Of a stretch of 64,000 bases of DNA, positions 6,920 through 61,958 are shown piece by piece (within the stretch, counting starts at the first letter, position 1; each line of letters begins with the position of its first letter). Location: positions 397,083-461,082 of the forward strand of contig JBJCIZ010000282.1 of the NCBI GenBank assembly GCA_051294375.1, in the 5' to 3' direction. A model generated the notes under the pieces. The model was not told where the DNA came from. It made no database searches and worked only from the letters and a program-made list of their open reading frames with translations. The translations under genes and the position numbers were made by a program. The DNA is from Paraspadella gotoi (Eukaryota > Animalia > Chaetognatha).

Positions 6920-9862
6920 CACAATTATGCCAATTGACAAAAATATGCCAGTTGAACAAATTCTTAAAGTTGACCAAATTATGCCAGTTTGACCAAATTC
7001 TGCAAGTTGATCAAGTTCTGCAAGTTGACCAAATTATGCCTGTTGACCAAATTTATGCCAGTTGACCAAAATTAGGCCAGTTGATTAAAATTATGCGGTT
7101 GACCAAATTATGCCGTTGACAAATTATCTTAATTGTTCAAATTAGGTCAGTTGACCAAATTATGTCAGCAGACCAAATTATGTCAGTTAACCAAACTATG
7201 TCAGTTGACCAAATTATGCAAGTTGATTAATTTATGCAAGTTGACCAAGTTAGCTTATTACCACTTAATTATCGATTGACCTGGAATTTTGTATGTGATT
7301 AGAAAAGTGTGTGATTGAACAGGAAACCAAGTTTCGATGGAATCTTTTGAGTGGAAATGAGTTTAAATGGAAAAAAACAAAAAACCTGTTTCACTATTTG
7401 ATTATAATTCTTTTTCCTTTTATATTAAATGTATATGCAGGATGTATTAATAAATCAAATAATTAATCAGTTAATTAATCAATTAGTAAATAAATTAATC
7501 AATAATTAATTAATTAGTCAATCAATCCATCCATCCGTCCCACCTTAGCAAAAAGCTCCAATAACTCGAGATTGGCTGCTTGGATTGGAATGAAATTTTG
7601 TGTGTGTGTAGGAAAGTGTGTGATAAAACTGGATATAAAGTTTCGACGGAATCGTGTGAGTGGAAATGAGTTTAAGTGGAAAAAACATAAGTCGCATTTA
7701 CTAAAATATTTTTACTTATTTCAACTATTATGTACTCTAATTAATCATAATTGGATGGATATATTTAGTTCAAATTTTTTGTGTGGGTAGAAAAATGTGT
7801 AACGACGCTTGATATTAAGTTTCGGTGGAAACGTACGACTGGAAATGAGTTTAAATGAAAAAAATATGAGTCACATTTACTTGAATTTTTTTACTTATTT
7901 TAACCCATAATAGATTGAGATGAAATTTTGTGAGCGGGTAGAAAAGTGTGTGAAGAAGCTAGATATAAAGTTTTGACGGAATTGTGCCAGTGGAAAGGAG
8001 TTTAAATGGAAAAAACATAAGTCACATTTACTTTAATATTTATTATTTATGATTACTAATTTATGATTACTAATAAATATTTTAATTAATTAATTAATTA
8101 ATTAATGTGAAAAAATTATGCAAATTAAAAAAATTATGCAAGTTGAAAAAATGATGCAAGCAGAAAAATGATGCAAGTTAAAAATATCCTAAAAGCATAA
8201 GGAGAGAGAGAGAGAGAGAGAGAGCAGAAAAATGAGCATAAGGATCGTCGCAATTGCAAAGAGAGAGAGAGAGAGAGAGGGAGAAAGATAGAGAGAGAGA
8301 GCAGAAAAATGAGCATAAGGATCGTTGCAATTGCAAAGAGAGAGAGAGAAAGAGACAGACAGAGTCGGAGATAAAAATTAGCAAGTAAAAAAGTTGTTAT
8401 TTTACTCACTGAATAAAAATACTTACAAAAACATAAAATTGATAAAATTATATTCTGATAACATTGTTTAATCACATGCAATATATCTAGTAAGGCGGGC
8501 CAAAATTGAACACTTTTTATAACTTCGAGTTCTCTCAAAAATTTTTTTTTCCTTCTACTACTAAATCGATTTTCAATGTAACTTTTTGAATTAGTTCATT
8601 GGGTTGTTGCTTGAAGGTTTTAAATATTTATTAATATATAACAAATGACAAAAAAAAATTTTAAATTTGATTTTTTAAGAACGGGTTTCTTAAAGCTTAA
8701 AAAGTTAAATGAAAGTTAGTAGCTATAATTTTTTCAAATTTGACAATAAATTGGTTAAAAATAGAAAAAAACCTTAAAAACCATCATCATCATCATTATT
8801 GCTGAATTTTATTTTTTAAATTTTTCATTAATAAACAAAAAAATTTTAAAAAGTTGTATTAAATAACCTTTATCTAACTTTTAAAGCTCTATCAGAATCT
8901 TTAAAACTTGATAAGCAAATTTTATAAAAATTATTTTCATTTTCATATTATTTAATAGTCGCTTACATTATTTATTTGAGAGAACTTCTAGTTTTAACCT
9001 GTTTCCGCCTAATATCTAGTAAGGCGGCCAAAATGGAACAATTTTTATAACTTCTAGTTCTCTTTAAATTTTTTTTCCTTTTACTACTAAATCGATTTTC
9101 AATGTAACTTTTTGAATTAGTTCATTGGGTTGTTGCACTGAAAGCTTTTAAATATTTAATAATATATAATAATTATATAAAGTTTGACGGAAGTGTGCCA
9201 GTGAAAATGAGTTTAAGTTGGAAAAAACTTAAGTCACATTTACTTGAATCTTTAGTATTAATGATTACTATTAAATGTTTTAATTAATTAATTAATTAAT
9301 TAATTAATTATTGTGGAAAAAATGATGCAAGTTAAAAAAATCTTAAAAGCATAAAGATCGTCGCAATTGCATAAAAAGAGAGAGGAGAGAGAGAGAAGAA
9401 GGAGACATAAATAAAATAGAGGATTGAAGAGACAGTAATTATTGTTTGTGTTAGTGACAAGAACCGTTCATATACAAGCAGTCCTGAGCTTCGGATTCAG
9501 GCTGTAACACTATGTTACAGGCGGGTTAAGCGCCCCGTCCCTCTTAAACTGCTAGGCGACCACCGGGCTAGAACCCCGGACCTTTGGGTTGGGAGGCGAA
9601 TGTCTTGCCTCCGGCACCAATGGCCGCTGATGAACGGTTGGTGGATTTTAGTCCACCATAGGATATTTGTTTGTTTTGATAAAATGTAAACAAGACATAT
9701 TTAATAACTGACCTAACCAATTTTAAGGACATCGATGATGATAAGTTGAATATAAATTTAAAATTAATTATTACATTTTAAAATTAATTAATTAATTAAT
9801 CGATTAATTAATTAATTAATTAATTATCGTAGGCAGATCAGACATTGTTTGCTCAACTTGTT
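6103..9862 (+). mobile_element. Long DINE-1/HINE-like element (or nested copies) with internal tandem repeats
   Basis: 5' GGCGGATTTGC-TTATCA-GCAGATCCCGAC, (CCGT)n, many ~150-165-bp repeats, a ~19-bp GTTGACCAAATTATGCCA array (6925-7250), and 3' GCAGATCAGACATTGTTTGCTCAACTTGTT. Confidence 0.7.
9425..9660 (-). mobile_element. Solo LTR of the tRNA-containing TRIM (tRNA-like part 9556-9627)
   Basis: Homologous to the LTRs at 54209-54895. Flanked by 4-bp TSD GGAT (9421-9424, 9661-9664). The paralogous empty site has a single GGAT at 20775-20778. Confidence 0.85.
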
Positions 9863-10594: not shown

Positions 10595-13500
10595 TTATTT
10601 CCCCTTCTTTTTTTTCTCTAAAATATCCTTATGTTTCTCTTTAAGCGTCGGTGGTATTTCGTGTAACATTCTTTTTTCCGTGAATTTAATGTGAGGGTAA
10701 TTAAAGGGGAGGTTTTTAACGGCATTAACGGGAAAAAATTTTAAGTTGCAAGGATTCAAACTTTTTTTTGATAATTCAACGAGATACATGAAATGTCTAT
10801 GACTACGTAATAAACATGATTTAGTATATTGTACATTTTAAAAATATAAACTCATACCGATTTTTTCCGCCGCTGCACTATCCACTCCTTTCAGTCTAAT
10901 CTTTTTATCATAACTCTCTTTTTTATAATCGAAAGTCAACAGACCTGCAAACTGCTCGGCTATTTGATTCGGGGGTAAATCGATTTTAAATTTACCGTTA
11001 ACCTTTTCATTTTTTTTTTTGCCATTCAAAAAGAGTATCCTTTATTTCGTCATTATGGGTGAAATAAGGATGATCTCTATCTAAATTGCTAACATCCAGC
11101 AACTTATGTAATTTAGCCATGCATTTATAAAAGAATCCCGGACCGTCTGACTTTGAATTAAATAATATTTTTAGGCACACTGAATCCGTGTCGGAGGACT
11201 CTCACGTTAGTGCTTCCAGGGAAAGTGCGGAAGCTGGGCAATATGAATTCGTGGAGGCAAAACTGGAGGTAATATTTTGAAAGATCTAACACTCCCATGC
11301 CCGTGAAGATACAGTCGTCCAACAGTACCTTTTTATTATAAGATTTTGCGTAAATACAATTTTCTGAGAGAATCATGGCGTCGATGAAGGCGTGGTCGGA
11401 TATAGTCTTCAATGCCTCCCTCTCGCTTGTAAGAGATCAACTTCCCGTAAATTATGTTCAAAATCAATTTTGCTCTAGAGCATTGTATTTTGCTCTTAGA
11501 TTTTGCCCTTAGATCGATATTTCCTTGGACAAACTCACGAAACAGCACCCTCTGATAAAAAAAAATAATTTTATTGACTCGGGTCAGTTTCACCCCTTTC
11601 GTTAGCAAATACTTAAGAAAAACAAAATGTATGAGATAATTTTTCTTATTAAAATCTACGATTAATTTTTGAACATTATAATTTTTCGTTCCGGTTTTAG
11701 CCATAAGAATCTTAGTGAATGGGGATAATTCGTCAGATTCTATTTTTGGTTAGAGGGGGAAACATTTCGAACAGATGCTTAGCCCTTTCCATATAAACTA
11801 GATCGACATTAAGAAAATAACCTATATTACCAAAATTATCTATATTATTACCGGAATTAATTAAAAATTCTTTTTTAATCTCTCTCAGATTCGATGTGAT
11901 TTTTTAACTTGAAATTAAAGCTTCTTTTTGCTTCCTCTAATAATTTATTGCTTATTTTAACGATGTCTTCAGGGATAGGTTTGGTAATCAATTCGTCGTT
12001 TGATTGAGCGTAGTTCACAAAAATACCCGACCAACCCCCCCGTATCGATCGGCGAATTTCTTTGTAAATATCGATAGATTTGATGCATTCTAATTTTACA
12101 TTAGATTTATACTTACAGGCGTCAAATGCGAAGGCTGGTAAGGACAGATAACGAGTTATGTCTAATTTAAACATAGAATATAATTCTTTTCTTAAATTAA
12201 CGATATTGTCTAATAGGAGGATGGTATCTAATTTTACATAAAAGCTGGCGTATTCCCCCAAGTTTTTACATTTTAATTTATTATACATGTCTAAGGCTTC
12301 CTGATAATCGCTCTCCGAAATATTTTTTCATTTTAGTCGGGAATAGAAATCCTTGTGTTTGGGAAATTCTATTTGATGTAACACGTTCACTCCCTGAAGA
12401 AAATCGTAGAAAAAATTTGCTTTCCTGAGGAACCGGGGGGTCAAAGATTCATCATAATTATTGCTCTTTACGAATTGATGGGTATAAAAAAAATTATCTT
12501 TTAATTTCTCTGCGCATTCTGGGCATAGGGGTTCTGACCCTTTTTTCCCCCCGACACGAATCGCAAATGCTATTTTCGAATAACTTGCTCACCAGGGAGT
12601 CCAGACTCTCAAAATTGAAATAGTTACACAAATCGATGAAGCGGAAAGGTCTCAATCTTTTACAGTCTTTACAGGATTTTCGTTTTTTATAAAACTTTTA
12701 ATCCTTTTCCCATTCTTTTTCAGCGGTTCATCGTCGTCCTGCTCCGAATCATCGTTTTCGACATTGTCGTCGTCGTCATGTCGGAGCACTGCCTCGAAGT
12801 CCGGCTCCCCGTCGTTTGAGTCGTCGTCGTCGTTTGAGTCGCCGTCGTCATCGATTGGGCGTGTCTTCTCCCCGGCTTCCTCAGCCTCCGACGCCTCGAT
12901 CCTGTCGTAAGCCTCTCTAATGCCAGGCATGTTGGCCAAACCCATCTTTTTCCCTCTTTTTCTCTCTTTGATCAGGTTCGGAACCGTTCCCTCTCTATAT
13001 TCTTTGATCTTTCTCTTCTTTTTGGCTCTGCAATTCAGGCATAAGAAACGAATGCTGACGCTCATCACTTTTTCTTCCGTCTTACCCAAGACATCCACTC
13101 TGCGAAAATAATGGCTCAAGTTTGCTATGGAAGAAGAGAGGATCTGGGTGAAATCATAACTAAGATTTTGTATAGCTATAGTTATTTCGCTCTTATCTAT
13201 CAATGCTAAATTACATCAATTGCAAACTATAGCGTATATTTTATTGTTAAATGTATAATCTAAATCGATACTACCAGATAAATGTTCGTGATGTAAAACT
13301 TTGCTATGTTTTTTAAATAACAAATCATTTTTGGTGGGGAATGGAATCTTACATAATTCACAGTTTTTTGCGCTTTTGTATTCCTTGCAAATTTTATTCG
13401 TTATTTCCAAATCATTGTTAGTAGTTAGTAGTTTGTTTAACTCATAAGAGTCGTTATACAGAGAATCCAAAAAATGTTTTTAGACCGTGTAATTTTCAAA

Positions 13501-15341
13501 TTCTTCCCCACTCTTAGCTTGAAAGTGTCTGATAGGAAATGTGTGTGTTTTATCATAAGTATTAATTATCTAATAAGCGCATGAGACCAATCTTAAATTA
13601 CTTATAATATTACTTCGTTTTAAAAATTTGATGCATGGCATGTTATCGTCACATTTTTCACAATCACGACTGTGCTCGTTTTCGTGCTTGAATCGACACC
13701 AAGGTCTGCTCTTGACCTCCCCCTCTTCCAAGGGGGTGTACTCTCTATTCAGATTCAGATTTTTATTCAAGGTATTTATGGCTTCGGTGTCGCAGGCGCC
13801 AATGAATTTTGAGCAATAAAAGGAAGACCAGGATTTAAATTCGATGTGGGTGCCCGGTGGAGTCAGTACAAATTTTTGATTTCTTTTTTCTTTGAAACAC
13901 GTTTCGTAATGCTGATTTTTTAAATATAGTTTAGTAAAGGATCTTAAACATTTAAGCCCTAGTATTCCTGCTTATGGATGACGATAGAAGCCTGGAGAGC
14001 GATCGAATGAGTATGAAGTGGCTGACCCCTTTTCCGAGCTGTAAAATTGTGAGTTCGAATTGTGGTTTCTGGTTGCAGCTTGAGACATAGAACGGGAAAA
14101 TTTCTAATTTTTTATTCTTATACTCATATGTATAAATAATAATGGCAAATAAATTTTTATTAAGTTTCTCTAATTTTTCGATTTGTCTCGGGCTGGTGAT
14201 CGAAAAATTTACGCCTTCATGATTAATATATTTATAAAAGGGACGAAAATTTTTTTCGTACCAAGCGGTTTTGGCGGAAAAATTAAAAATTGATGCTTTT
14301 ATGCAATTCAGCAAACATTTGCCATCTTCGCTTGGGACGTTTAAAAGCGCATTTTTTCTCCTGAGGAAATTCACAATTTTTGGCGAGCCCCCGCCGATGC
14401 TCATAATATTTTTAAAGCGAAAAATATTTAATTTTAAAAATACTGTGTATAGATAAACGAGACCGGATCGTTTCAGTGTTAATTTGGAAATCTCGTAAAA
14501 CAAATTTTCGAATATCCTGTTTAATGTATCCTGTAACCCATCCCCGCGGATCAAGATCTCTACAGGCTGTTGACTTTTGTAATATATCAAATCGGCGTCT
14601 TCGATCTGCTTAATGTCGCTCTCCCCTCCCCATATCGGTGGACGTGCCAATGGCGGAAAATAAAGCTAAACGAATTTTTATTGAAAACTTAATAGATTTT
14701 TGCTTTTTTAATTCCTGATATATAATATTACTGAAAAGAGGTTTGGCTCTGTTGAGCAGTTCAACGAAATCAGCCGACTCTTCGCGAGGGATAAATCTGA
14801 AAGATTGAATTATTTTTGATATGAACTTAAAATAAAATCTATATTGTCCTGAGAATAAACCGAATAATGACTCTCGTATTCATCCTCTTTACCGAGTCGG
14901 CTAATTTTTTAAAAAATATTATTGTTAGTGAAATGCTTACGCGTTACAATTTCTTCGTCCTCCCAATCGTCGGACTCTTCCAGATGTCCGTTCGCCGTCG
15001 GTTCCTCTCGGAGCTCCTAACCTCCGTTTACTGTCGGTTCTTCCTCTTCGATGGCAACGATATCATTGTTGGACAAAATGGAGTCGGTGTTTGCGGTAAT
15101 CGATTCCGCGGTGATGTCGTTGCTGTGCGGGGTGAGATCTTCGTTCGTGGGATTCGCTTTGATCCCTTTCCGAAGTTTCCCCCAATCCTCTTTGCGAAGA
15201 GTGGATCCATGGATCGATGGGGCGTTGTATCCAGAAGTCGCGTGAACGATATGGGTCAAACGGCATCGCTGTCGGTGTGATTCGATTAGGTTGTCTATTT
15301 TTTAAAAACGATATGATGGGGGGAGAATTCAACGTTTTCAT
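10595..15341 (-). pseudogene. Decayed Polinton/Maverick/adintovirus-type protein-primed DNA polymerase B with N-terminal Zn-finger and endonuclease VII-like domains
   Basis: Collinear motifs across frameshifts: RSGLVY..LKLNIFRF...KNALLNV.SEDGKCLL; CELC...HHEHLSG...CNxCNL; NLSYDF; FRFID; FYSRL; YVKLDTILL; SIRGG; GYFLNVDL; KLILNIIYGK; GMGVLDLSK; DTDS; GKFK; KGV. Confidence 0.9.
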
Positions 15342-27137: not shown

Positions 27138-28203
27138 GCTCAACTTGTTTTTTTTTTATTGGACGTGGGAGAAATCCCGCGTGGGAGGGAATCCCGTGTG
27201 AGAGGAATCCCGCGTGGGAGGAATCCCGTGTGGGAGTGAAATCCCGACGTGGGAGGAATACCACATGGGAGAATCCCGCATGGGAGGAATCTCGCATGGG
27301 AGGAATCCCGTGTGGGAGGATATCCTGCATGGGAAAAATTCGCGTGTGGGAGGAGAATCCCGTGTGGGAGAAATCCCGCGTGGGAGGAATCCCGCGTGGG
27401 AGGAAATCCTGTTGGAGGAATCCCAATAGGAACCAAGATAGAGCTACAAAATGAGCTAGCATAGCAGGGGAATCTCCACCTCAGTGACGACCCGCGGTTC
27501 TCTGCACGAGCAGATGGTGAAAACCGAAAGATAAAATCCCCAGAACGAAAAAAATCAGGAGCCCGTCTATTGAGCGGCCTGTGCAGGCACGGGTAACCAA
27601 GTCTGTACAGCAGCATGGTTCTGGGATTTTATCTTTCGGTTTCACCAGCTGCTCGTGCAGAGAACCGCGGGTCGTCACTGAGGTGGAGATCCCTGCTATG
27701 CTAAAGTTTCATATTTGAGCTCTATCTTTACTCTTTCAATTTCACTTTATTACTTATTAACTCATCTCTTCAAATCAATCTTTCAATTTCAAAATTTCCT
27801 GTTTCATTTCTTACTAATTATTAAGATAGATTAATTGTTATATTCACTAATATTCATCAGTTTAAAACTTTTTCTTATTGTTATACAATTATACAATTAT
27901 ACAATTATACAATGCAAGATAGAGGCCACCTTACCGCCAGAACCTCTCTCTCCCCGGGCCTTCTCTTCCTCTGCCAACGCCTCCTCCTCCCTCGTCGTCC
28001 CTCCTCTTCATCCTGAGTCACGGATAGAGTCTATGGAGATCGGACACACTCTCTCAAACTTCTCCCTCTGGTCTCGGGGTCTGAAAACCTTCCCTCTCCT
28101 CTTCTCTCCCTTGTTATGTACCCTTGATACCCTTTGTTATATCTGTTTTCCAATTACATTACATTCCTTACCCTTCCTTACCTCTTTTCCCTGATGAGAG
28201 ACT
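27138..28203. repeat. Inverted duplicate of 71-1123
   Basis: Same order of 17-bp array, GIY hairpin, (CAATTATA)n and PLE tail, in reverse complement, with scattered 1-nt indels. Confidence 0.9.
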
Positions 28204-37883: not shown

Positions 37884-39230
37884 TTAATAGTATAGATTAG
37901 TTACATTTTTATACTCTCTCACCTTTGTTTCGATCATGTAATTCTTGAATCCTTGTCCGTAGGAACGAACTGTCAACGTCTGAAGACGTGCTGCATAGGT
38001 GAGCATAGTTTCATCTTTTTGCTTGTATGCAGTTTCAAGCTCGTGACGAGCTGCTTCATCCATGCTGGTTTCAAGTCGATCGTACAAGTATTCACGAACT
38101 GCTTTGTAGATGCTTGTAGGATCAGCCTCAACTGCGTTGGCAGCCAAGGTTCGTGGCACACCCTTAAGAAGTGCGATGTATTTACCAAGGAGGTACCTCT
38201 GTTTTAACCCGCACACACGGGCTTCCTCTTCAAAAGCAAACAAAAAAGCGTGAATGCTATCACTGTCCTCGAACTTTGGAAAGATTGGTCGCACTGGTGC
38301 AGCCAACATAGCTTGACGCGTCCCTCTAGGGGCAGGTGCATCGTCATCGCTGTCATCCGGATCGTCACCTGGGTCAGCAGGGGAAGAAGTGACGCCAGAT
38401 GCGGCGGCACCAGACGCGGCGGTAGCAGTAGCGCCAGAGGTTGTGGCTCTAGACGGGGCAGCGCCAGAAGCGGAGGCGCCTGAACCGGCAGCGCCAGATC
38501 CTCTGGTTGTTGGGGCATCAATTTCGTCCAAACCAGCATCAACTTCATCCTCACCAGAATCAGAAGTTGGAGTGACAAATCTTTCCTCTGGCGTGGACAC
38601 TGAAGGTGGCGTTGATGGCGCTGGAGGCGTCAATGACATGGAGGGTGTTGGCGCCGTCACTACCAAGCGCAGGGCGGCAGTAGGGAGAACTCTAGACGAG
38701 AGTTCCGAAACGGTAGTCGTAAGGTGCTGCATTCCCTGCTGCAACTGTAGCATCATCGAGAGCATCTGATGCTGTAGGATGAAGGGTGAAGATTCGCCGG
38801 CCATTACCGGAACAGGTGGCGGAGACGGCAGCATCGTGGCGGAGGGCGCTCACAACGTCGGCGGTTGCTCTTCTCCGGGAAGATGTGACTCGTCGTTCAT
38901 TTTTAATTTTTCGAAATTTTAAAGAAATAAAAATTGCGAGAAAGATTAATTGCGATAAGAGAGCGAAAACAGAGAGGGACGACAATTTTTATCTATGAAT
39001 TGTTCCAAACAGCCGGAGAAAGCGCCAGTTATGGCGTTGAAAGGCCTCGTGATGACACCAGGAAAAAAGGAGTTGAAGTGGCACTGGATCCCACCGAAAC
39101 TGTCACCACTTGTAGCATAAGGTGGCTAAGTGACTAGAGATAGAGCAGCTCCTAGCTCCTGTTGTTTTTCGTAGCATTTAGTATTTATTGAGAGAAGAAT
39201 ACATCTTTTAATTACAATTTTATATTTATA
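37884..39230 (-). mobile_element. gag: 5' part of a Ty3/Gypsy element: LTR end, PBS and truncated gag (37884-38834)
   Basis: PKFEDSDSIHAFLFAFE...LKG..R...Y..V...L..R...ARHEL....QKDETMLTYAARLQTL is a retrotransposon gag pattern. Minus strand ...GCTACA-AG-TGGTGACAG..GGTGGGAT PBS at 39088-39108. Confidence 0.75.
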
Positions 39231-39699: not shown

Positions 39700-41560
39700 T
39701 CGACACCTCCAATCAATGGGGCATCTTTGTGTGTGCCGCGACTTCCGGACGTGGCCAACTACGCCCCAGTCCTTACACCATTATACCAAGCCTTAAAAGG
39801 CAACCCCCGAGTCCTCAAATGGACCGAGAAGATGACTCAAGCCTTCAGCAAGTCGAAAGAAGCTCTAGCAAATGCAACTCTGCTTGTCCACTGTGGACGG
39901 GGCACCTCTGGCCCTGACCGTCGATGCGTCACTGACGGCCATCGGCGGCGTCCTGGAGCAGAAGATTGGTGGTCAATGGCAACCCTTAGGCTTTTTCTCA
40001 GCCCCGCTAGCTCAGAACCTGACAAAATGACCACCTTTCGACCAGGAACTCATTGCTGCACACCGCTCTGTCCGGCACTTCGAACCCTTCCTGGAAGGGC
40101 GCTACTTCATTCTGTTTTCTGACCAGACCAAGTAATCTGAGCCACACTCAATGCGTCAAACATATCAATTATCTGCCATCTCCGAATACACAACAAACAT
40201 CCAATACATTAAAGGCAAGGCCAACGTGGTAGCAGACACACTATAAGAATCATCAGCCCAGCATGCAGCGGCCCAGAACCTGAAGGATCATCAAGACCTT
40301 CAGAAATGCCCTCGTTGGTCGCAACGGTCAATGCAGTTGGCCCCCAAGGCATCGATTTTGCCGCTTTAGTCGGCAACCAAAGTTCCGACAAGGAGATCCA
40401 GCGACTCCTGGCGGACGCCCACACCACCCTGTGATTCAAGATAGTTTGCCAGAACGACTTTGATATCATCTGCGATGTCAGTTCAGGCAGGGCGTGCCCC
40501 TTGGTTCCCACAACATGGCGCCGTTGAGTTTATGATGCCATCCACAACCTAGCTCACCCGAGCGTCAGATGCACAAAAAAGCTGGTAATAAAAAGATTTG
40601 TTTGGCCAAAAGCCGCGTCAGACGTGGCAAAATGGGCTCAGGCCTGCCTTGAATGCCAGTGCAGCAAGGTACAACGACACACCCAGGCTCCACTACAACC
40701 TTTCGAAGCACCATCGAGGCGTTTCGAACACATTCACATTGACTTGGTGGGTCCCTTGCCCACCTCAGGCGGTTACACGTACCTTTTAACCTGTGTAGAC
40801 CGTTTTTCTCATTGGCCTGAAGCATATCCTCTTCGGAATATCTCCGCAGTAACCGTAGCAACAGCCTTCCTTCAGAACTGGATCGCCAGATTCGGTGTAC
40901 CAGCCACAGTCACTTCCAACCGTGGAACACAATTCACTTCTGAATTGTAGCATCAGCTGAGCCAAGCTATAGGCAACAGACTCAACACCACCACAGCTTA
41001 CCACCCGCAGGCGAACGGGATGGTCGAACGGTTTCACCGTACCATGATAGCATCATTAAAAGCGCGTTGTGATGCATCCAGCGCAAATTGGTTCAATCAA
41101 CTACCCTGGGTCTTATTAGGACTCAGGTCCACACCAAAAGAAGACCTACAAGCATCACCAGCATAACTTGTATTCGGAGATACAATAGCAATCCCAGGCG
41201 AACTGGTAATAGGTACACAGCCAACAAGAGCAAATGCCCAAAATGAGCTGCAAAACATGAGACACGATGTTGCATTGTTCAGACCAGTAGTTCCTAATTA
41301 GAACTCAAACTCACCTGTTCATCTTCCTCACAGCAAACTGGATTTTTGTGCTCCGCGGCCAACAGGGTTACTCGCTAGCTACGCCCTACTTGGGCCCTTA
41401 CAAAGTAGTCTCAAGAGATGACAAGACCTTCACAGTGAACATCCCCGGCTGAGGACAAGAGAAGATCTCCATCGACAGGATCAAGCCAGCAACAACAGAA
41501 CCGGATGTCCAACCAACACCTCCAGCAGCCCCAAGAAGAGGACGATCACCAGCAGCAATA
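39700..41560 (+). pseudogene. pol: Ty3/Gypsy pol remnant (RT end, RNase H, integrase), CsRN1-like
   Basis: LKWTEKMTQAFSKSKEALANATLL; CLECQCSK; FEHIHIDLVGPLPTSGGYTYLLTCVDRFSHWPEAYP...WIARFGVP...RGTQFTS; TTAYHPQANGMVERFHRT. Multiple stops. Confidence 0.9.
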
Positions 41561-42554: not shown

Positions 42555-43186
42555 TTTTATCGAAGACTTACCATCAAGGATAAATCTGTTTGCATGCCTT
42601 GTAAACGAGGAAGTTATCAGCCAATAAATGGAGGATTTGCTTGTCTTTCTTGTCCTCCTGGAACATATACTGACAAATCAAAAAGCACAAAATGTAATAA
42701 AAAATGTTCAAAAGGATCTCGTACTAATTCCTTAATTGGAGCAGATGGCTGTCTTAAGTGTCCACCAGGAACTTACAGTGATAAAGATGGTTTAAACACT
42801 TGTTATGCATGTGAACCTGGAAGTAGAGCAAAGAATGAAGGTTCAACTTCTTGTGAACCATGTAGGAAAAATTGGTTTATGGATTTGTATGGCCAAAAGC
42901 ATTGTGCAGCTTGTGCAGTTGGATGCTCCAGCAAAGCTGGAGCTGAACGCTGTGTCTCAAAATATCAAACAGATCAATTAACTGGCTGTGTGGACAGATT
43001 TTTAAATGTTAAAGACTCAGAACCTAAAGGTTCGCGTAAAAAAGATGAGTATAACTCAAAAGAAGTCAAACTTGCTTTATGGGAATATGCATCTTATTTG
43101 CCAAATTTCTTAAGAAGTGATTCTCCAGATACAATGACATGGGAGAACTTTAAAAAGCTGAGTCGCGAAGGAGGAGATATAAAAAA
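42555..43186 (+). CDS. Coding exon with GCC2/GCC3 Cys-rich repeats
   Basis: CMPCKRGSYQ, CLSCPPGTYT, CLKCPPGTYS repeats. Acceptor TTTTAG|42555, donor |GTAAGT at 43187, frame open throughout. Confidence 0.85.
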
Positions 43187-43403
43187 GTAAGTCTTTTTAA
43201 TAAATACTTACATATGTAGTAGAGTGATGTGAAAATAATTGGATTTCATAATACCACTCATTGTCAAGGCATATCTTAACTGATCAATATAAAATTTAAA
43301 CACATAAATTACTTTAATATATTCTACTCAACTAATTTTTAAAATTAATGAAATAACCATTGGTTTGCAAATGACAGCATTTTTTTTCCGGCGCTTGTAA
43401 AAT

Positions 43404-45120: not shown

Positions 45121-47739
45121 CTCTAGTTTCGAATTTGTATCATAGTATATATACTTAAGTACAGTTCTCCGAGAGGCAACGCATGGCTGATTCTGATTGG
45201 TTCCCGCGATTTCGATAGATTTCAGGCTCGATTTCTATCGACGTGTAACTTCTCAGATCTTGTTCAGTCTTGTAATGCGTTTTCTATACTTTTCAAAGAT
45301 AAATTCGCTATTTAGATATCTCGGAAACTTCTTTTTTAAGAAACTAGTGATCGCTGGATTGGTGGACTTACCTTGTGATAGAGGCAACCATTCTAGAAAT
45401 TTGGCTTCAGAAACAAGTAAGATAGATTCTTTAAACTTTATATATATTTGCTGAGAGGGTGAAGCGGCTAAGAGAGAGAGAGAGAGGGAGAGCGACGGAG
45501 ATATCAATAGAGAGAGCGAAGAGATACGAGAGGAGAGAAACGACGAGCAGAGAGATGAGAGACGGATAGAGAGAGTAGAGGGAGAGCGACAGAGATAGAA
45601 CGGAGAAGAAAGAAGAAGAAAGACGGAAATATCCGATGGAACTAAATCACGTGACCTCGGGAGGCAGGGACGCCGGCGCGGCGCGCTGCTGGGGCACGGC
45701 GCTGATGTGGAACCATAGGCAGCTGTTGGGCCGCTCGTCAGGTGCTTCGCTCGGGCGCGTCAGGCGCGTCGTCAGCTGTGGAAAACGAGGTCACCGTGTG
45801 ATCAGTGGAGGAACGGAGGAACGGAGGAAGCTATAAAAGGAAGGAGGAAAGAAAGAGGGTCATTCCCAACTTTTGTCAACTCCACGAAGACAGAGCTGCG
45901 CTCTGTTGTACATTAAATGGGAATAATGTGTAACTCTGTACTGAAGTCTCTCTCTTGNNNNNNNNNNNNNNNNNNNNNNNNNNNNNNNNNNNNNNNNNNN
46001 NNNNNNNNNNNNNNNNNNNNNNNNNNNNNNNNNNNNNNNNNNNNNNNNNNNNNNNNNGGTTGATACCTCATAGGAGAGGCTAATTTTTAATTTTATTTTT
46101 TTATTTAATTATTTTTATGCAGTCCCTGGAGGATTGTATGTCAAAAAAAACGCGTTTTTTAAAAAATTCCTTTTAAAATAGTTTCCGAGAATATGGTCAT
46201 TAAACGTCAGCCTTGAAAGGCAAAATTTATCATAATAACATTTTCAAAGTTTCTCTAAGATTTTTTTGTCGCGCTCAGTACTAACTAATTTAAAAAAAAT
46301 AGAAAACGTTTCTGTTGAGGAAGGGGAAGTCGCGTAGATCTTCTTCCCCTCCCTTTTTTTCGCTCCTCCTCATTTTCGATCGGAATTTTCACATTTTTAG
46401 ATTCACTCCCGCTTTTCTCCCTTTTACGGCAAGACCTATTCTCTGTTCCTCTGTACATTTATTTTCGGTTCGTCTTTTTTTTCACAATATACGCTTATAC
46501 CTTTATTCGAGTTTTTCTTTTAGTTAGAGACTTATTTCAGGGTGGCGCTCAATGTGGAGACTTGTTCTCTACCACGAACTGCCCTGGATCTTTTCTATCA
46601 AAGAATTCACCGAAAATATCTTTTTTTAGCTTTTTTCTATCAAAAAGTCACCTAAAATATCTTTTTTCCCTAATTCAACTTCGAAACTTTTATTCTCTTT
46701 TCGACTTCGAACTTTCTTTCATCTTCCGACTTTAGGATTTTTTTTCCTCTTTTTTCTTCCTTTGTCTCTCTTTCGCCGACTCGAATCTTCCACACTCCAG
46801 TTATCTCCCACCCAAAAATTGAAAGAAAAGAAGGGGAGTAGCGACAGGGAAGAGGGCCACTTAATCAAATTTTTCCCTTCTGGAGACGCAGAGCCAGGTC
46901 GTCAAAGCAGAGGACACGGCTCTTTGAAACCCCGGAGACGAAGAAACCGGAGTGGAAAAGGAGAGGAGACTCTGCTTTTAGCAGCCCCGGAAAAAGGCCG
47001 GACCAGAGCGGACAAAGAAGAGGGGACACTGCTCAGAGCAGCCCCGGAAAAAGACCGAACCGGAGCGAACAAAGAAGAGGGCAGCCCCGGAGACAAACGA
47101 ACCAGAGTGGAGAAGACGTCAGGCCGACCGGAAGCGATCCAGGGAGACGAGGAGGCTGACCGGATATGACCAAAGGGCCCGAGGAGACCGGATTAGGAGC
47201 AACGGGGCCCGTTGAACGCGGCATGGGAGACAAACTTCTCCGCAAACAACTAAAAGAGGTTGTGATTGTTTTTTGGATTGAACTAAATTTGTTTTCCAAG
47301 CTTGACAACGGAACCCTTTGAACCGGAAAACATCAATCCAAAAGGTGAGTCTGATCGATGATTGATTGATTAATTGATTAATTGATTGATTGATTAGCTA
47401 ATTGACCGATTGATTTTATTGATTAATGTATTGATTTATTGATTTGATTAGCTGATTTAGTGATTGATTATTCGATGAATTTATGATTGATTAATTGTTA
47501 TTTTGTTTGCTTTGGTGCCGTCCTTCTCTGTTCAAAGTCTACTTAGGCAAGATATTTCAAATTCACTCATTTTTTTAACGAAAAATTTTTTGATCAAATT
47601 TTGTCTAAAGGAATTTCTTAATTTTACGAATTAAACTTTCCGTCTAAGTAACTTTGCAATTCATTAAATACTGATTGATTGATTCGAACTTCCCCTTGCT
47701 CTCTTTAATTGAAATTTTTTCTTTATTTCATATTGAACG

Positions 47740-49890
47740 ATGTCTTTCGCTGAACTCAAGGAGGAATACATGCGCATCAACATGAATGATTTAACTCCCG
47801 AAGGATTACATGACGCCGTTGACACCCTTTGTGGATTGATCGATCGCTATCTACAAGCCGAAACTCCTGAAGCCATCACTGCTATTGAAGAAATGAAATT
47901 TCTGGTCAATCAAAAGATTGGCCAAATTAGGATGATTCAAGGTAGCTATCCCAAGGGATCCATCCAACGCGGGATGCTTGATAAGAGCGTCAACATGGCT
48001 AACATCACAGTCCGTAAACGCCGTAATGTATCACCTCCCGAGAGAACCGAAGTGAATGAAGAGCAAAGAGAGAATGATGATGCTGAGACGGCACCGAAAG
48101 AAACGCATGATGCCACCGAGGAAGCTGAAGCATTGATTGATGGGTACTTTGACGCCATGAATGATGTCCAACAGAATGATGTTTCTGAAGATGAAGACTC
48201 CGGCCCTGAGTACGAGATACAAGGCCCATCCAGACAAGAGAGATGTCATGGGACGACCAAACGTTCCGTAACTTTGAACAAGTGGCACAAGAGCTCACTC
48301 TCATCAAGAAGAAAAGAAGAAACAAAAGAAAGATATAAATCAGGAAATCGAAAAAAGAAAAATAGAAAGGAAAAAGAGATGGAAAAAGAGATGCTCCAGA
48401 TGAATGAAATCAGAAGAACAAGGCTATGAAGAAATATCGACGAAGAAATTGAAAGAAAGCTCAATTATATAATGAAGCTGCACCGTACTTGGGACAACAA
48501 ACTACTAGCACCATCAAAAGGAGCCGGATTTCCTCTTCAGAGAATGATTTGAGAAATGAAGTGAATGAATTGAAAAGAATGATTAGGAATTTGCAAGGTC
48601 GTTATCATGTGCAGAAACGACCTTCAACGAGACAAGATCCACCCAAGACAGAGCCATCACCGAAATACAAGATTACTGCATCAATCATGAAGTCGAAAAT
48701 AAAGAAACAGGAAAAGAAGATTTGCCAATTGGAAAGATCAGTCAAGGAATTACCAAACAACTGGAAAGAGAAAGGAACAGAAGAATAAATTTTGGATTTA
48801 CTACAAATGAATCTGCTCCAATAAATCCAACTGCTGCTCCAACCACTGCTGCCGCACCTCCTCCGGCTCCAACACCAATTACAGCAGCACCTCCTTTAGA
48901 TGACTCCAATATGGGAATTATGGATCAAGCAACAGAAGAAGAAAAAGATCACCTACGAAAAAGGGGCCTACGCAAAGCAAAAGAAAAAGGTCACCATGGA
49001 TAACGCCGCCATCGACGTCAACAGGCCATCCAGAACGTCAACGGCGGGGGTAAAATGAAGGTCAAGTCTTCAAGGATCACCCAAGGATCCCCACCAGCAT
49101 CTTCTCGTGCATCTCGAAAGGTGAATGTTGAAGAGACGAATGTTGTTTTGAATCATATTAGCGAATGATAGATGCCTTTGATAAGCATTGCCTAGAAACC
49201 TGTTCAACTTTTAAGAAACTTTTCAAAGGATGGAAAGAATGATGTAATGAAAAGAAAATGGTTTGTGCTTTAGATGTTTAGAAAAGAACCACATAGCAAA
49301 ACAATGCACTCAACCTAGAGAGGCTTGTATGGTCTGCTATGGGCCTCATCATACTATTATGCATGCTACGGGTTTCACTCCAGCTTTACCCCAGGCAGAG
49401 CCCAACGACGTATGCCAGAGTGGTTGCAACATCCCCAGCTCAACTTCAATAGGCCAACACCGAGAAATAAAAACCTCAACATGACGACGCTCACTGCTGT
49501 TGCTGCAAGGACGCCGCCGTTGCCAAACAACTCGTCGACATGACCGGCTACAGAGCCTCCAGCACTGTTGATGTGAATGATTTTATAGCAATTAGCCCCG
49601 CTGATATTCTCTATCCTGGCATAGACTGGTTCACGACCAGTAGTCATTCCACCCGAGTCATGGTAAAATCACGAGGACTGGTTGATGAATTTTGGAAAAG
49701 ATGGAGAGACGATTACATTTTAACTCTCCAAGCTAGAGAAAAATGGCAGAAAACTGAACCGAATGTTAAAATTGATCAATTAGTTTTGATTGTTGATGAA
49801 AATCTACCGAGAGATGAATGGAAACTCGGCAGAATTGAACGAGTGGATGATGAATTAGGTCACGTGAGAAGAGTGATTGAATGCGATTGA
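47740..49890 (+). mobile_element. BEL/Pao LTR retrotransposon, internally deleted
   Basis: Gag Zn knuckle CFRCLEKNHIAKQC...CMVCYGPHHTIMH and DUF5641-type FWKRWRDDYILTLQAREKW...LVLIVDENLPRDEWKLGRI. Confidence 0.85.
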
Positions 49891-50259
49891 TATTTGATGT
49901 TCATTTATTGAACAAAGTGAAAATGAGAATGTTTATGTTTGAATGAATAGATTAAAAGAATGGAAAATCTTGACAAAAAAGGAAAATGAAATATTTAAAA
50001 TCACAAAACTAATATACCTATCAATACTTAAATTAACAAATAAAACTTAAGATTCTAGTTAATGACTAGACTCATATAAAATAAACAACATATATTGAAA
50101 TCCATATTTACTTAATTGTTAAAACAATTATAACCATTAGATAATAAAATATAATAGCCCCCTTTATCCTAAAGACATCACTAAAAATATATAATAACTA
50201 CTAATCTTTGTCCCTTTTGTTTATTTTTCATGAAAACGAGCGACTTCAAACGATCAACA

Positions 50260-52647: not shown

Positions 52648-54208
52648 CTCTCTGTACCGATCTCTTTGTGCGATTGTTTCGTTTTTTTGAAGAAAAATTC
52701 GGTATTATTTTTCCTTTTAAAAAACTTTTATTATTGCCATTTTTATACAAATCCCAATTTATCCTGAGATTTTCGTTTTACATTTTAGATAAAGTGAAGA
52801 ATACCTTATAATGACATACAACTGTCACATGTGCATCAGCTAATGTTGACAGGTTTAGGCCTATTACCTGTATGTATGTATGCTAGGCGAGTCTTACGTC
52901 GTTCTTAGAAATCGAGGAAAGACTTTTCAAGGAGATTTCGTTAAAATCTTGACTACCAAAAATAATGTCAAACGCCCTGGAAAATCCAGATAAAAAATAG
53001 ATGTACAAAAACACTTGATTCGCATCCCTGTTACATCTCTAAGGGCTCGGCATTTTTTTCTCTTGATTAAATAACCATCTTTTGACATCAAACCATCAGG
53101 ATTCAAATGGACTGGTCGCTCGGAAAATATTTTCCACGTGATTTTTATTATATTAAAATTAAAGCGATTTCTTCACTTCAATACAAGTCACGCATTTAAG
53201 GGTATGTTGTCATTTACAATAAACTTCACAATTCAAGCGCAATCAGATAGCCATATGTCTGAAGGGCTCGCAAAAATTTCTTCTTTCAGTTGTTATCTTT
53301 CAGTCATTTACATATCTAATGGTTCAGGTTAAAGTGAATAGTCAGTTATTATCGCGAAATTTTTTATTTAACATACATATTTAACTATAAAATTAAAGAA
53401 GAGAAGAATGAAATTCATTTATTTAATACGAATAAAGGAAAAATCTTTTTCATCAGCGTTACTTAGCAAAAACGATGTTCTTTTTTTTCCTTGTTTCTTG
53501 AATTCAGCTGAACAAGTGCAGCAGCGGCTCCGGGACACTCTTAAAGCCGACAAGCAGCAGTGGCCAGAGTTGCAGAGCAGCATTAATCGCGCCCTTGCGA
53601 CATGCCGGATCAAGGATCGGCATCGGTTCATTCCGGGCCGAGTCTCAACTGCGCGGTCAAAGAATATTTTGGTCTCCTTGCAGTCAATTTGACAAATGTA
53701 TCACGATGAGGTCATGGCTTGAATGAAGAAGTGGCACGGAAGATCCGGATTTCTTTTCTCGACGAACCCGCCGAATTTGTCCGGACTGCCGCCCGATTTG
53801 CCGACGCGGCCGTTGCTTGCACAAGCCCTGCAGTGCCGCAGATTAGGATTGGCCTGCCACGGTCAACGGGAGCACCCAAGAGCTTTATCAATTTTAAGCG
53901 TTGAGAACAGTAATAAATTAGAGTTCGTGTAATATATCCCTGTGGGATAACGAAATTTTGCGATCCCCGAGAGCTTGAATTTCCCTCTGCAGGCGTTATG
54001 GGAAAACGAAGAGAAGAAGAGGAAAAGTTAAAATTTCCGTTCTTACGCCAAAAAAAATTATAAGACACGTAAAAACAATGCATGTTTTTTAAGCTTCACG
54101 AGCTAAGGATTTTTTTTAATTACTTTAAAAAAATTTAATTATTATATTTTTTTTTCATTGCATTGATAGATATTTACAAAATAACTGTTTTTTATTTGTA
54201 ATAACCTC

Positions 54209-54895
54209 TATTGGTGAGACTAAAACCCACCAATCCGTGCATCAGCGGCCATTGGTGCCGCGAGGCAAGTTCATTCGCCTCCCAACCAGAAGTCCGGGGT
54301 TCTAGCCCGGTGGTCGTCTGGCAAGTTAGAGGACGACGGGGCGGCTTAACCCGCTGACAGTGTGTTACAGCCTGCATCCGTAAGCTCAGGACTGCTTATA
54401 TTGAACGGTTCATATCGCTAACTTCATTAACAAAATTACTGTCTTCTTCATTGGTGAGCCCGACTTCTGAACAAACAACAGCAACAACGAACACTTCATG
54501 GCGACATAGCCTCACCTGGATGCACTTTCCGCCCTCAACACATCAGGCGGACATGCCTCAACTTGGTGATGGCACTTTCCACCAACAACAAACAATTCTC
54601 ACTGAAGAGACGCAACAGACATCTTTACCTACGGACGAGCGGGGGATGTATGGTGGACTAAAACCACAACCGTTCATCAGCCCGGCCATTGTGCGGATGG
54701 CAAGTCATTCGCCTTTCCCAACCCAAAGGCTCCGGGTTCTAGCCCGCGTGGTCGTCTGGCAGTTAAAGAGGGACGGGAGCGCTTAACCGCCTGTAACATG
54801 TGTTACAGCCTGCATCCCGAAGCTCAGATGGATCTGCTTATATCTGAACGCGTTTCTATCGCTAACTCATAACTAATAATTACTTGTCTCTTGCA
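54209..54895 (+). mobile_element. Complete TRIM with tRNA-like sequence in both LTRs (Helenus-like)
   Basis: TSD CCTC (54205-54208, 54896-54899); LTR1 54209-54450; PBS TGGTGAGCCCGAC at 54452; PPT GAGCGGGGGA ending 54646; LTR2 54649-54895; tRNA-Gly(CCC)-like core at 54245-54317. Confidence 0.85.
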
Positions 54896-56494
54896 CCTCG
54901 ATCATTTAATAATTCGATTGTTTGTGTTTCTTGTTTTTTTTTATCATTCATCAACAGTTTATATGTTTATTTAGGAAATATTTGGATACTAACTTTTAAA
55001 GATAGAGAGAGAGGAAATTAACTTTGATAATCTCTCACCCTCTGTCCGAGATTATTAACTGACCATTTTAATTCATAGATTAGAAAACTCTGTTCACTTG
55101 TGTAAATATTATGTATTATATCTTTTTAGAAATTTATTAATATTTAAATATATATTATTTTTTGAAATGTCTAAATTATTTGTATATTTAAGCCGCAAAC
55201 TTAATTTTAAACTTTAACTCTAATTTACCGCTAAACTTCCCCTAAACCCAAACTTTACAACCTAACCTAAAACTTACCTCTACCCTAACCTTACCCCTTT
55301 CACCCTAAACTTAACCCCTAAACTTAACTTTACCCCAAGCTTTTTTTTAACCTTAATTTAGTTTTTTCTAGTTAATTTACACTTATCTTAATTATTCTTA
55401 ACCATAATTTATTGTACCTTAATTTTTACCCAAATATATAAATTGCGTGCTACCAATTTCATATAACAAAATAAAAAATATAAAAAAATTTATATCCTGA
55501 TTCCTTTATTTTTTTTTCCCAAAACGTTTATCCTCTTCCGTTCCATTTCGTTCCTCTTCTTTTTTCCCTTAGGCCGATTTTATGGTATTTAGTTTATAAG
55601 TTTAAAAAAAGTGTTCAATTTTGGCCCGCGCCTACTAATATATTATAATATATACTTAGACAACATTTGAATCCGACAATATTTTACTTGCATAACCAGC
55701 TCGGGGGGATGCATTTCTGTTCGTTTTTCCAAGCTCTTCCAAGCTCTCTAAAAAAGTTTTATTTAAAAAAAAACTTTACGCCCGAGCCAAGGGGTGTGAA
55801 AAACCAAAAATGATTCACCATTTCTTAGTATTTTTTTAGATTTTTTCAGTTAACTTTTTAATTTATAATAATCATTTAATCAAGTTAATTACTTAAGATA
55901 AAGATTTTAATTTATTCCTATTTAACTTCTTTTAAAACATTCATTAAAAATATAGTTTTTAGCTTAAAGCCAAGCGTGTTGGAAAGGGTAAAATGTTTAA
56001 AAAAGTTAATTTTTATATTTAAAAATCATAATTTACTGTTTTTTTAAAGATAATATATTTTTAATTCATGGCTAATGAAAAATATTTGGATTATTTTAAA
56101 TTGGTTTAAGTTAATCAATTTAATATTTATTTTAAGAACTTGACGCTGATGAAGGCTCAAATTTTGAGGCGAACATCTTAATAATAAAATTCGTGCCAAA
56201 ATTAAATTATCGTCTCCTTAAATAATTTTTTTTTAAACTGAAAACCCTAAAAACTTTATAATCCAAAACAATTAATTTTAATTTTTAATCGCATAATAAA
56301 ATTGTTATAAGATAAAAATTATTTAAATAATAATTCAAATATTTTACTGAAAAAATAATTAATAATAATAATAATAATATTAAATAATTAATTTTTTACT
56401 AAAAATAATTTTATTTTTTAAAAAAAAATTATTTATATCTGCATATCACATTTTGTGCTGGATAAGAATAATAGTATGCTTTAATTCTATATAT

Positions 56495-56739
56495 TGAAGA
56501 GACAGTAATTATGGATATATGGTTAGTGAGCAGAAACCGTTCAATGTAAGCAGTCCCTAGCTTTTGCGCATCAGGCGGTAGAACCCACCATGCTTACAGG
56601 GGGGTTTAAGCGCCCCCGTCCCTCTTAACTGCCAGACACCACCGGGCTAGAACCTCCGGACCTTTAGATTGGGAGGGCGAATGACTGTCCTCCGGCCAAT
56701 GGCCGCTGATGAACGGTTGGTTGATTTTAGTCCACCATA
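56495..56739 (-). mobile_element. Second solo LTR of the tRNA-containing TRIM
   Basis: Same termini as 9425-9660; flanks ATAT/TTAT (4-bp TSD with one mismatch). Confidence 0.75.
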
Positions 56740-61160: not shown

Positions 61161-61958
61161 GTGAGAGAGTCTTGATTGAAAGCTTGCAGGGACCTGCTAT
61201 GTCATTATCTTGTAAGAGTGATGGAGGCCTTAAACCACCAAAGCCTGTCCAAAGTCAGGGGCAAGATAGCTTATTTATTAAATGAATGGATAATTTTTAT
61301 ATTGGTTGTACCAATTTCATAGAAAATGTAGTGTAGGAAAACAAGAAGTGAGTGCGCATTCAAACTCTGCAGAAATATTATTTTTCAAATACAATGTCGA
61401 ATTACATTTTACAATTTCATCTTACATTTTGGGCAGTTAGGGATTTTTACGTTTTTCCTCAAATTAATCTTGTTTCAAAAATTTGTAACGACGAATCGTC
61501 TTATGGCGCCTCAAGAATGGTTGTGAAGGTTTCAGTAACTAGGCAACTGAAATAAACAAATATTGATGACGCCGTAAGCAGCGCTAGTACGACTATGCAG
61601 TGCTATACAGCTATTCAGTAAATGTATGACTATTCTTTACACTTACAATTTTTCTTAGTAAAAGACTTTAAAAAATTGAAACAAGTCTAATTAAAATTTT
61701 ACTTGTTATTTGTTACCACAAAATATTGTTTAATATTATTCTAACAATGAATTACATGTCTAAAGAGAGTATTTTTATAAGTAATAACAAATGTAAAATT
61801 TCTAAAGGAACGAAGCGACGTGCACTCAAAACCAAAAGCGATCCGGGCTAAAAAAGTAAGGATTGCACCCAAAAACGGGAGCGGGAGGGGTCTCCGGAAG
61901 CGCCAGATTGGCAGCGATGGAAAATCGTTCACTTCCACATCTCTGGTCAAAACCATAT

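Follow-up and report, generated by a model that had tools for sequence, protein, structure and literature searches.

A Helenus-type miniature retrotransposon of Paraspadella gotoi with a predicted tRNA-derived promoter and twister ribozyme

How does a retrotransposon that is shorter than 1 kb, codes for nothing and carries its predicted promoter inside its long terminal repeats (LTRs) obtain an RNA with defined ends? The question is raised by a locus of the chaetognath Paraspadella gotoi, at positions 54205-54899 of a 64,000-nucleotide stretch of DNA (contig JBJCIZ010000282.1 of assembly GCA_051294375.1, positions 397,083 to 461,082; henceforth the window). A previous sequence-only reading had seen here a complete miniature LTR retrotransposon with a tRNA-derived module of the RNA polymerase III (Pol III) type in each LTR. 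[quoted passage not shown] On balance, we favour a Helenus-type TRIM whose predicted tRNA-derived promoter and twister would let it move via a self-cut, probably circularized RNA with the enzymes of CsRn1-clade Gypsy elements. While the layout itself is of a known kind, the self-cutting step, a twister module added to a tRNA-headed Helenus-type TRIM, is likely to be new. If this is true, the element bridges Helenus and retrozymes, involves twister ribozymes in LTR retrotransposition and explains how a TRIM that is transcribed by Pol III and has no terminator comes by an RNA with defined ends; were it simply a new Helenus family, the finding would be modest.

Layout, tRNA-derived unit and primer site

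The complete element measures 687 bp and lies on the + strand between two copies of CCTC (54205-54208 and 54896-54899, coordinates exact). As delimited by BLASTN and alignment, a 5' LTR of 242 bp (54209-54450) is followed by a non-coding interior of 198 bp (54451-54648) and a 3' LTR of 247 bp (54649-54895). A single T separates the 5' LTR from the primer-binding site (PBS; 54452-54464), and a polypurine tract (PPT; 54637-54646) precedes the 3' LTR, with TG between them. The order of parts given by the sequence-only reading is thereby correct to the base, as is its description of a non-coding spacer of about 200 bp: start-bearing open reading frames (ORFs) in the interior comprise only a few codons, and two frames are open from stop to stop, as expected by chance for this length. 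BLASTN of the element against the window returned four LTR copies and one interior. Two of the LTR copies are solo, namely the best-preserved one of 236 bp (9425-9660, - strand; TSD ATCC, 4/4) and one of 245 bp (56495-56739, - strand; TSD 3/4), whose twister region is the most degraded of all copies. The tally of full elements, solo LTRs and TSDs that had been envisaged for the whole genome was taken within the window, yielding one full element, two solo LTRs and 4-bp TSDs.

When TSD lengths of 3-7 were scanned with 5'-end shifts of -3 to +3, 4 bp gave the best fit at the three insertions, with 11 of 12 bases identical (4/4, 4/4 and 3/4); a 4/4 match has a chance of ~0.009 per site. Both LTR ends are sharp and common to all four copies, which start with TA, not TG, and end with CA. 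TA...CA is a known rare LTR end. A TG start combined with a 6-bp TSD was rejected, as it gave no perfect TSD match. Exact-pattern scans for the element found no occurrence in metagenome contigs and none in viral contigs.

The tRNA-like unit is located 33-37 nt inside the LTR and not at the repeat end. In the solo LTR it comprises 73 nt (9555-9627, - strand; previously placed at 9556-9627 with ~72 nt), and the acceptor stem with 7/7 pairs, the pairing T arm and the B box are present. In the complete element the unit occupies 54245-54318 of the 5' LTR, with a degenerate A box and the B box at 54298-54308, where it constitutes the predicted Pol III promoter, and 54681-54756 of the 3' LTR (B box at 54735-54745). 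A covariance model built from 32 intron-free tRNAs (of 42 unique tRNAs from two archaeal genomes) was run over the whole window with filters off. The solo copy came first with 18.9 bits (E 0.007), followed in second place by that of the 5' LTR with 15.9 bits (E 0.049); the remaining two of the four copies, including that of the 3' LTR, gave no match at E<=10. On pairwise alignment to the 42 tRNAs, the best scores of the four copies were reached by 0, 1, 2 and 20 of 300 shuffles, the value for the 3' LTR being 2. ARAGORN found no tRNA in the unit, and Rfam scans returned no tRNA match at E<=10. The anticodon stem does not pair, and the unit cannot be a working tRNA. The B box GGTTC is kept in all four copies; the A box reads TGGTG...CGG in the best copy and varies among the others (TRGCY...YGG in most Helenus families). 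Judged by model rank and shuffles, the unit is tRNA-derived, so that both the tRNA-like unit proposed for each LTR and the Infernal-type scoring suggested for its core held up, notwithstanding the negative ARAGORN and Rfam results. The proposed resemblance to tRNA-Gly(CCC) survived in part. Among 156 pattern-selected, mostly Gly tRNAs the best match was a Gly(CCC) gene (55/75 columns), whereas among the 42 unselected tRNAs Val(TAC) scored 62 and Gly(CCC) 60. From these alignments the isotype is likely Gly(CCC), with Val(TAC) close.

The PBS is of the CsRn1-clade type and directed at tRNA-Trp. It agrees with the bee tRNA-Trp site in Fig. S2 of Kojima 2024 (PMC10886601) at 12/13 bases and with the CsRn1-clade consensus at 12/12, as far as the available text of PMC2582038 gives it. 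Self-priming by the LTR's own tRNA unit was rejected: the best match of the PBS to its own LTR covers 7-8 of 13 bases and lies outside the unit. According to extracts of PMC2582038 and PMC3630058, elements of the CsRn1 clade such as PwRn1 and AgCR share the PBS consensus and the 4-bp TSD with our element and tolerate loose, modified or otherwise non-canonical termini, but they are autonomous, coding and 5 kb long. Outside the element, the window contains a Gypsy RNase H-integrase fragment (39750-41506, + strand) that is decayed, being interrupted by frameshifts and stops, and 63% identical to P0020 over 351 amino acids. The closest integrase clusters bear a single name, that of a bacterial metagenome-assembled genome, which we take to reflect a mis-binned contig. 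Because GP[YF] occurs near the C terminus in 78 of the 120 homologues listed and the CHCC gag motif in only one of them, most being without gag, we read the fragment, from motifs rather than from a tree, as likely CsRn1-like. A CsRn1-like lineage is thus likely present in this genome and a candidate helper of the element; BLASTN within the window detected no sequence shared by the two.

Helenus elements (TRIMp3) have been defined as TRIMs with tRNA-derived LTR sequence, 311-1263 bp in length and with a 4-bp TSD in animals (Kojima 2024, PMC10886601), in line with what the sequence-only reading had stated of them. With two LTRs, PBS, PPT and a non-coding interior within 687 bp, tRNA-derived LTR sequence, a GGTTC B box, a 4-bp TSD and a Gypsy-type PBS that does not match its own tRNA unit, the element belongs to Helenus by this definition. 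It has in common with the known families a size below 1 kb, the non-functional tRNA-derived unit and the occurrence of solo LTRs. Its nearest members are Helenus-2_SyJa and Helenus-2_SyUm of gall wasps (Synergus), in whose supplementary entries, as far as available, the same T+TGG tRNA-Trp PBS is found. In contrast to Helenus, its LTRs begin with TA and lack a T-run after the tRNA unit, which many LTRs in the available lists possess (by eye). Moreover, it carries a twister motif, whereas the main text of Kojima 2024 does not mention ribozymes in Helenus (the word appears only in a reference title). Five element-specific 8-11-mers and the motif ggttctag gave no match in the available parts of the supplement, in which line breaks could hide some occurrences. 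The element therefore appears to be an unlisted family, with parts 2-5 and 7-9 of the supplement compared by motif search only, and shares no tested motif with the listed families beyond the tRNA part and the primer type. The presumed novelty of the family stands to this extent, although the type as such had already been described as Helenus.

A twister motif behind the tRNA-derived unit

The sequence-only reading had recognized the tRNA unit of the LTR but was incomplete, having missed both the CsRn1-type primer site and a twister motif that directly follows the unit. The intact motif resides in the 9.5-kb solo LTR (9477-9553, - strand) and is of type P5, one of three twister permutations that are confirmed according to the available part of PMC10085705. 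It runs in the order P5, P2, GACGG, 6-nt stub, UAA, P2, GC, P3 hairpin, P4, P5. The P3 hairpin has 8 pairs and, compared with the available Table 1 of Liu 2021 (PMC8501958), resembles the P3 of Schistosoma twisters; P4 has 5 pairs with a bulge and an 8-nt loop L4, UCCGAAGC. P2 consists of two contiguous pairs; the validated phage example L304 also has a 3-nt P2 strand. The pseudoknots T1 (3/3) and T2 (2/2) are formed by Watson-Crick pairs. Assigning the general base and the cut site after the accessible text of PMC6154101, we predict cleavage at 9528/9527. Folded as a whole, the solo LTR displays a 5'-end hairpin and a helix of 9-10 bp that brackets the tRNA unit and the twister.

The corresponding twister-like motifs of type P5 in the complete element are interrupted as assembled: small indels affect P2, the P1 stub, P3 and L4 in the 5' LTR (54320-54396, + strand; predicted cut 54347/54348), and the P1 stub, P2, L4, P4 and P5 in the 3' LTR (54758-54838, + strand; predicted cut 54784/54785). 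GACGG and UAA are kept in all four LTR copies, among which covariation is uninformative. The solo LTR motif has GANGG, UAA and L4 UCCNAAGY in the P5 order together with the T1 and T2 pseudoknots, as type-P5 twisters do. We compiled a descriptor whose fixed bases come from the Rfam consensus. It matches the window at two places only (9539, - strand, and 61220, + strand); because of small indels, neither the LTRs of the complete element nor the solo LTR at 56 kb pass it.

These indels have to be seen against the quality of the assembly. The two LTRs of the complete element are 79.5% identical and differ by 25 mismatches (7 transitions and 18 transversions) and 20 gap openings; for a different pair of duplicates in the window the counts are 42 gap openings and 8 mismatches. 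When all four copies are aligned, private changes in the 9.5-kb solo LTR amount to 4 substitutions, with no indels among them, against 15-19 substitutions and 5-11 indel columns, mostly insertions, in each of the remaining copies. The window further includes runs of N with 25 bases (three), 100 (two), 10 (two) and 359 (one). Together with the indel-dominated differences between duplicates, these runs suggest a noisy consensus from long-read gap filling, and the indels that break the twister in three LTR copies are probably assembly or sequencing errors. Because of this noise in the other copies, the family is best represented by the 9.5-kb solo LTR. For the same reason, and because the differences are dominated by transversions and indels, the insertion is undatable by LTR divergence, and such dating was rejected.

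A second type-P5 twister-like motif at 61206-61268 (+ strand) is present in a single copy in the window, and its flanks are unrelated to the TRIM. It has a P5 of 7 pairs, T1 3/3, T2 2/2 and a palindromic 6-nt P1 stub, and an Rfam scan of the window lists it as a weak Twister-P5 match (61217-61259; 25.8 bits versus a gathering score of 37.6). Compared with this motif, the LTR motif is changed on both sides in one pair each of T1, T2 and P2. A self-complementary 6-nt P1 stub occurs in both, with a chance of ~0.05 each. The alignment also pointed to an alternative twister register at an upstream GAGGG, which was rejected because, judged by eye, P2 and T1 do not form in it; readings of the LTR as hammerhead, hepatitis delta virus (HDV)-like or pistol ribozyme (by eye) were rejected as well, with no Rfam match. 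As far as sequence can tell, the LTR motif is very probably a true homologue of twister ribozymes.

Proposed life cycle and its alternatives

We lean towards the view that the twister is used in the replication cycle of the element. We adopt the logic of the cycle of plant LTR retrozymes, which carry a hammerhead in each LTR: as described in the available part of Cervera 2016 (PMC4918200), the hammerheads cut out a unit without an R repeat, which is circularized, and reverse transcription by Gypsy enzymes has been proposed. In the chaetognath element Pol III would start at ~54245 and meet no T4 stop before 54934, beyond the element; no T4 run occurs between 54245 and the element end, nor in the 5' LTR as a whole. 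The twisters would cut the transcript at 54347/54348 and 54784/54785, and the resulting 437-nt product without terminal repeat would be ligated into a circle of one LTR, promoter included, and one interior. As the tRNA-derived promoter lies upstream of the cut, the circle would obtain it from the 3' LTR. A Gypsy reverse transcriptase could then prime at the PBS with tRNA-Trp and run round the circle, the PPT would prime the second strand, and integrase would insert the product with a 4-bp duplication.

The two LTR twisters may pair with each other through their 6-nt P1 stubs. Because the stub is short and self-complementary, they may even need such mutual pairing, which a two-LTR transcript alone offers in cis; cleavage as dimers has been reported for minimal hammerheads whose stems are palindromic (PMC6765202, as far as available). 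That cleavage is obligatorily dimeric is a tentative proposal. We attach the same reserve to its extension, an animal LTR retrozyme whose twister pair cuts only when domain-swapped through the self-complementary P1, which would restrict the production of a circular template to complete elements. The model predicts the cut sites, the 437-nt circle and dimer-dependent cleavage.

Several observations weigh against a functional ribozyme and a circular intermediate. As a folded circle, the 437-nt unit does not exceed its shuffles in stability (z -0.56); it is 56% paired and thus lacks the high self-pairing of retrozyme RNAs, for which over 70% is given in the available text of PMC4918200; the folded copy probably contains sequence errors. 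In models without pseudoknots, the twister fold of the monomer has -15.7 kcal/mol versus -26.5 kcal/mol for another fold, and the swapped dimer -43.1 versus -61.6. The motif has only two contiguous pairs in P2 and a 6-nt stub where phage P5 twisters have a true P1 hairpin, and inefficient cleavage has been noted for twisters without P1 in the available part of Liu 2021 (PMC8501958). Rfam detects no twister at E<=10 in 9420-9665, 9470-9560 (91 bases) or 54200-54905; the LTR motif does not reach the gathering score of RF02684 (type P5), a model without a P3 arm. The descriptor was written after the motif had been seen, and it is passed by just one of the four LTR copies and by neither LTR of the complete element. 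On the side of the promoter, besides the degeneracy of the A box, a purine position of the B box is occupied by T, and the absence of T4 is not significant, as 365 of 5,000 shuffles also lack one.

Such points give most room to an ordinary Helenus TRIM that acquired the twister along with adjoining sequence (a Penelope-like or RTE element could be the donor) and in which the ribozyme is now inactive or dispensable, the element replicating through a linear Pol III RNA and R-U5 strand transfer. This would account for the broken twister cores in both LTRs of the complete copy as assembled and for the preference for inactive hairpins in folding; every feature that defines Helenus is present without a ribozyme, and the unrelated motif at 61206-61268 implies that the genome has donors. 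However, no core base or tertiary pair is lost in the least-diverged copy, and one of these pairs, in T1, is changed on both sides relative to the Rfam consensus. The order of promoter and then ribozyme recurs, by eye, with a hammerhead in two published Trp-primed Helenus families, and also in Schistosoma SINE-like repeats. We therefore regard a passive twister as a serious but clearly less likely explanation than its use by the element.

Alternatively, only the tRNA-derived promoter might be real and the twister a chance, over-fitted reading of a GC-rich LTR full of hairpins. The post-hoc descriptor and the missing Rfam match are in keeping with this, as is the pronounced structure that the solo LTR has in any case, folding far better than shuffles (z -4.3). 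Yet none of 20,000 shuffles of the solo LTR passes the descriptor, and 60 shuffled windows contain two matching places. As an independent control we used 103 viral loci fetched by pattern, of which 20 were scanned with Rfam and six called Twister-P5; the descriptor matched five loci, all of them among these six phage P5 twisters. Furthermore, P3, P5 and a UAAA-like linker are present in the LTR motif without being required. A coincidental twister is accordingly improbable.

The last alternative, two tRNA-derived short interspersed elements (SINEs) side by side that mimic an LTR element, would fit LTRs only 79.5% identical and an interior without a second copy in the window, but is very improbable, since both repeats lie within a single TSD, the junctions are occupied exactly by PBS and PPT, the solo copies are flanked by 4-bp TSDs, and the four LTR copies show none of the SINE behaviour that the sequence-only reading had named as evidence against itself, being sharp-ended, with the tRNA unit internal instead of forming a 5' head, without an A-rich or tandem tail and without long TSDs of variable length.

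Relation to ribozyme-bearing elements and neighbouring features

With plant LTR retrozymes, as characterized in the available text of PMC4918200, the Helenus-type TRIM with its predicted twister shares the lack of coding capacity, a self-cleaving motif per LTR (predicted here), PBS, PPT, the 4-bp Gypsy-type TSD, a Gypsy helper and a predicted unit RNA. Retrozymes of plants, however, use type III hammerheads and a tRNA-Met primer, have LTRs of ~350 bp and a length of 1-1.5 kb, and no tRNA-derived promoter is described for them in that text; the present element has a twister, a tRNA-Trp primer and LTRs of ~240 bp within 687 bp. Their circular RNA has been shown, whereas here it is predicted. Rfam scans detected no hammerhead in the LTRs, in which the twister motif takes its place. 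The element thus likely works like a retrozyme without carrying the hammerhead by which retrozymes are recognized. LTR retrozymes are called primarily plant elements in the accessible part of a 2026 preprint (10.64898/2026.07.22.740005).

Metazoan non-LTR retrozymes and the SINE-like SM-alpha repeats of Schistosoma, as far as the available descriptions go, likewise have a ribozyme behind a Pol III or tRNA promoter, and once cut, their unit carries the promoter at its 3' end. They differ in being tandem repeats with type I hammerheads and are stated to be without LTRs, PBS and PPT (for metazoan retrozymes in the available part of a 2020 review, PMC7761336). The T-variants of Perere-3 of S. mansoni, in the available text of Liu 2021 (PMC8501958), also tie a twister with weak or missing P1 and similar P3 to a retrotransposon. 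There, the ribozyme is of type P1 and occurs once per element, at the 5' end of a non-LTR RTE, whereas the chaetognath element has type P5 in both LTRs. A literature search of titles and abstract beginnings found neither a twister in an LTR element nor a dimeric twister, which is weak evidence given its poor coverage of subscription literature.

In Data S1 of Kojima 2024, as far as available, the LTR consensus sequences of Helenus-2_SyJa and Helenus-2_SyUm contain, by eye, a complete type III hammerhead behind the tRNA unit, which is unremarked in the main text; a 9-bp pairing between loop I and loop II is likewise seen by eye. Taken with the twister, these hammerheads could represent a recurring class of Trp-primed, CsRn1-dependent TRIMs with tRNA promoter plus ribozyme, in which the type of ribozyme is interchangeable, a generalization that we put forward as possible rather than probable. 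This suggests that published TRIM libraries may hide unannotated ribozymes.

The remainder of the window contains remnants of other elements. A Pfam scan covered 14 of its ORFs. Neither PDB nor Pfam gave a match for the ORF at 37887-38846. At 11100-14700 (- strand) a protein-primed DNA polymerase B (Pfam DNA_pol_B_2, below cut-off) is left in broken pieces, which are presumably Polinton/Maverick-like. Retroelement remains at 47700-49900 (+ strand), with a DUF5641 match at 49471-49887, we take to be of BEL/Pao type. The BEL/Pao, CsRn1-like and Polinton-like pieces and the 4-bp TSD are in keeping with an animal host. The segment 453-803 (- strand), duplicated at ~27500-27700, recalls by eye the start of a Penelope GIY-YIG domain, with no Pfam match at E<=0.1. 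Finally, two long open frames with cysteine-rich Ephrin_rec_like repeats (1274-2443, - strand, and 42555-43190, + strand) have distant homologues only, which for the cysteine-repeat ORF compared are 24-34% identical (n=19).

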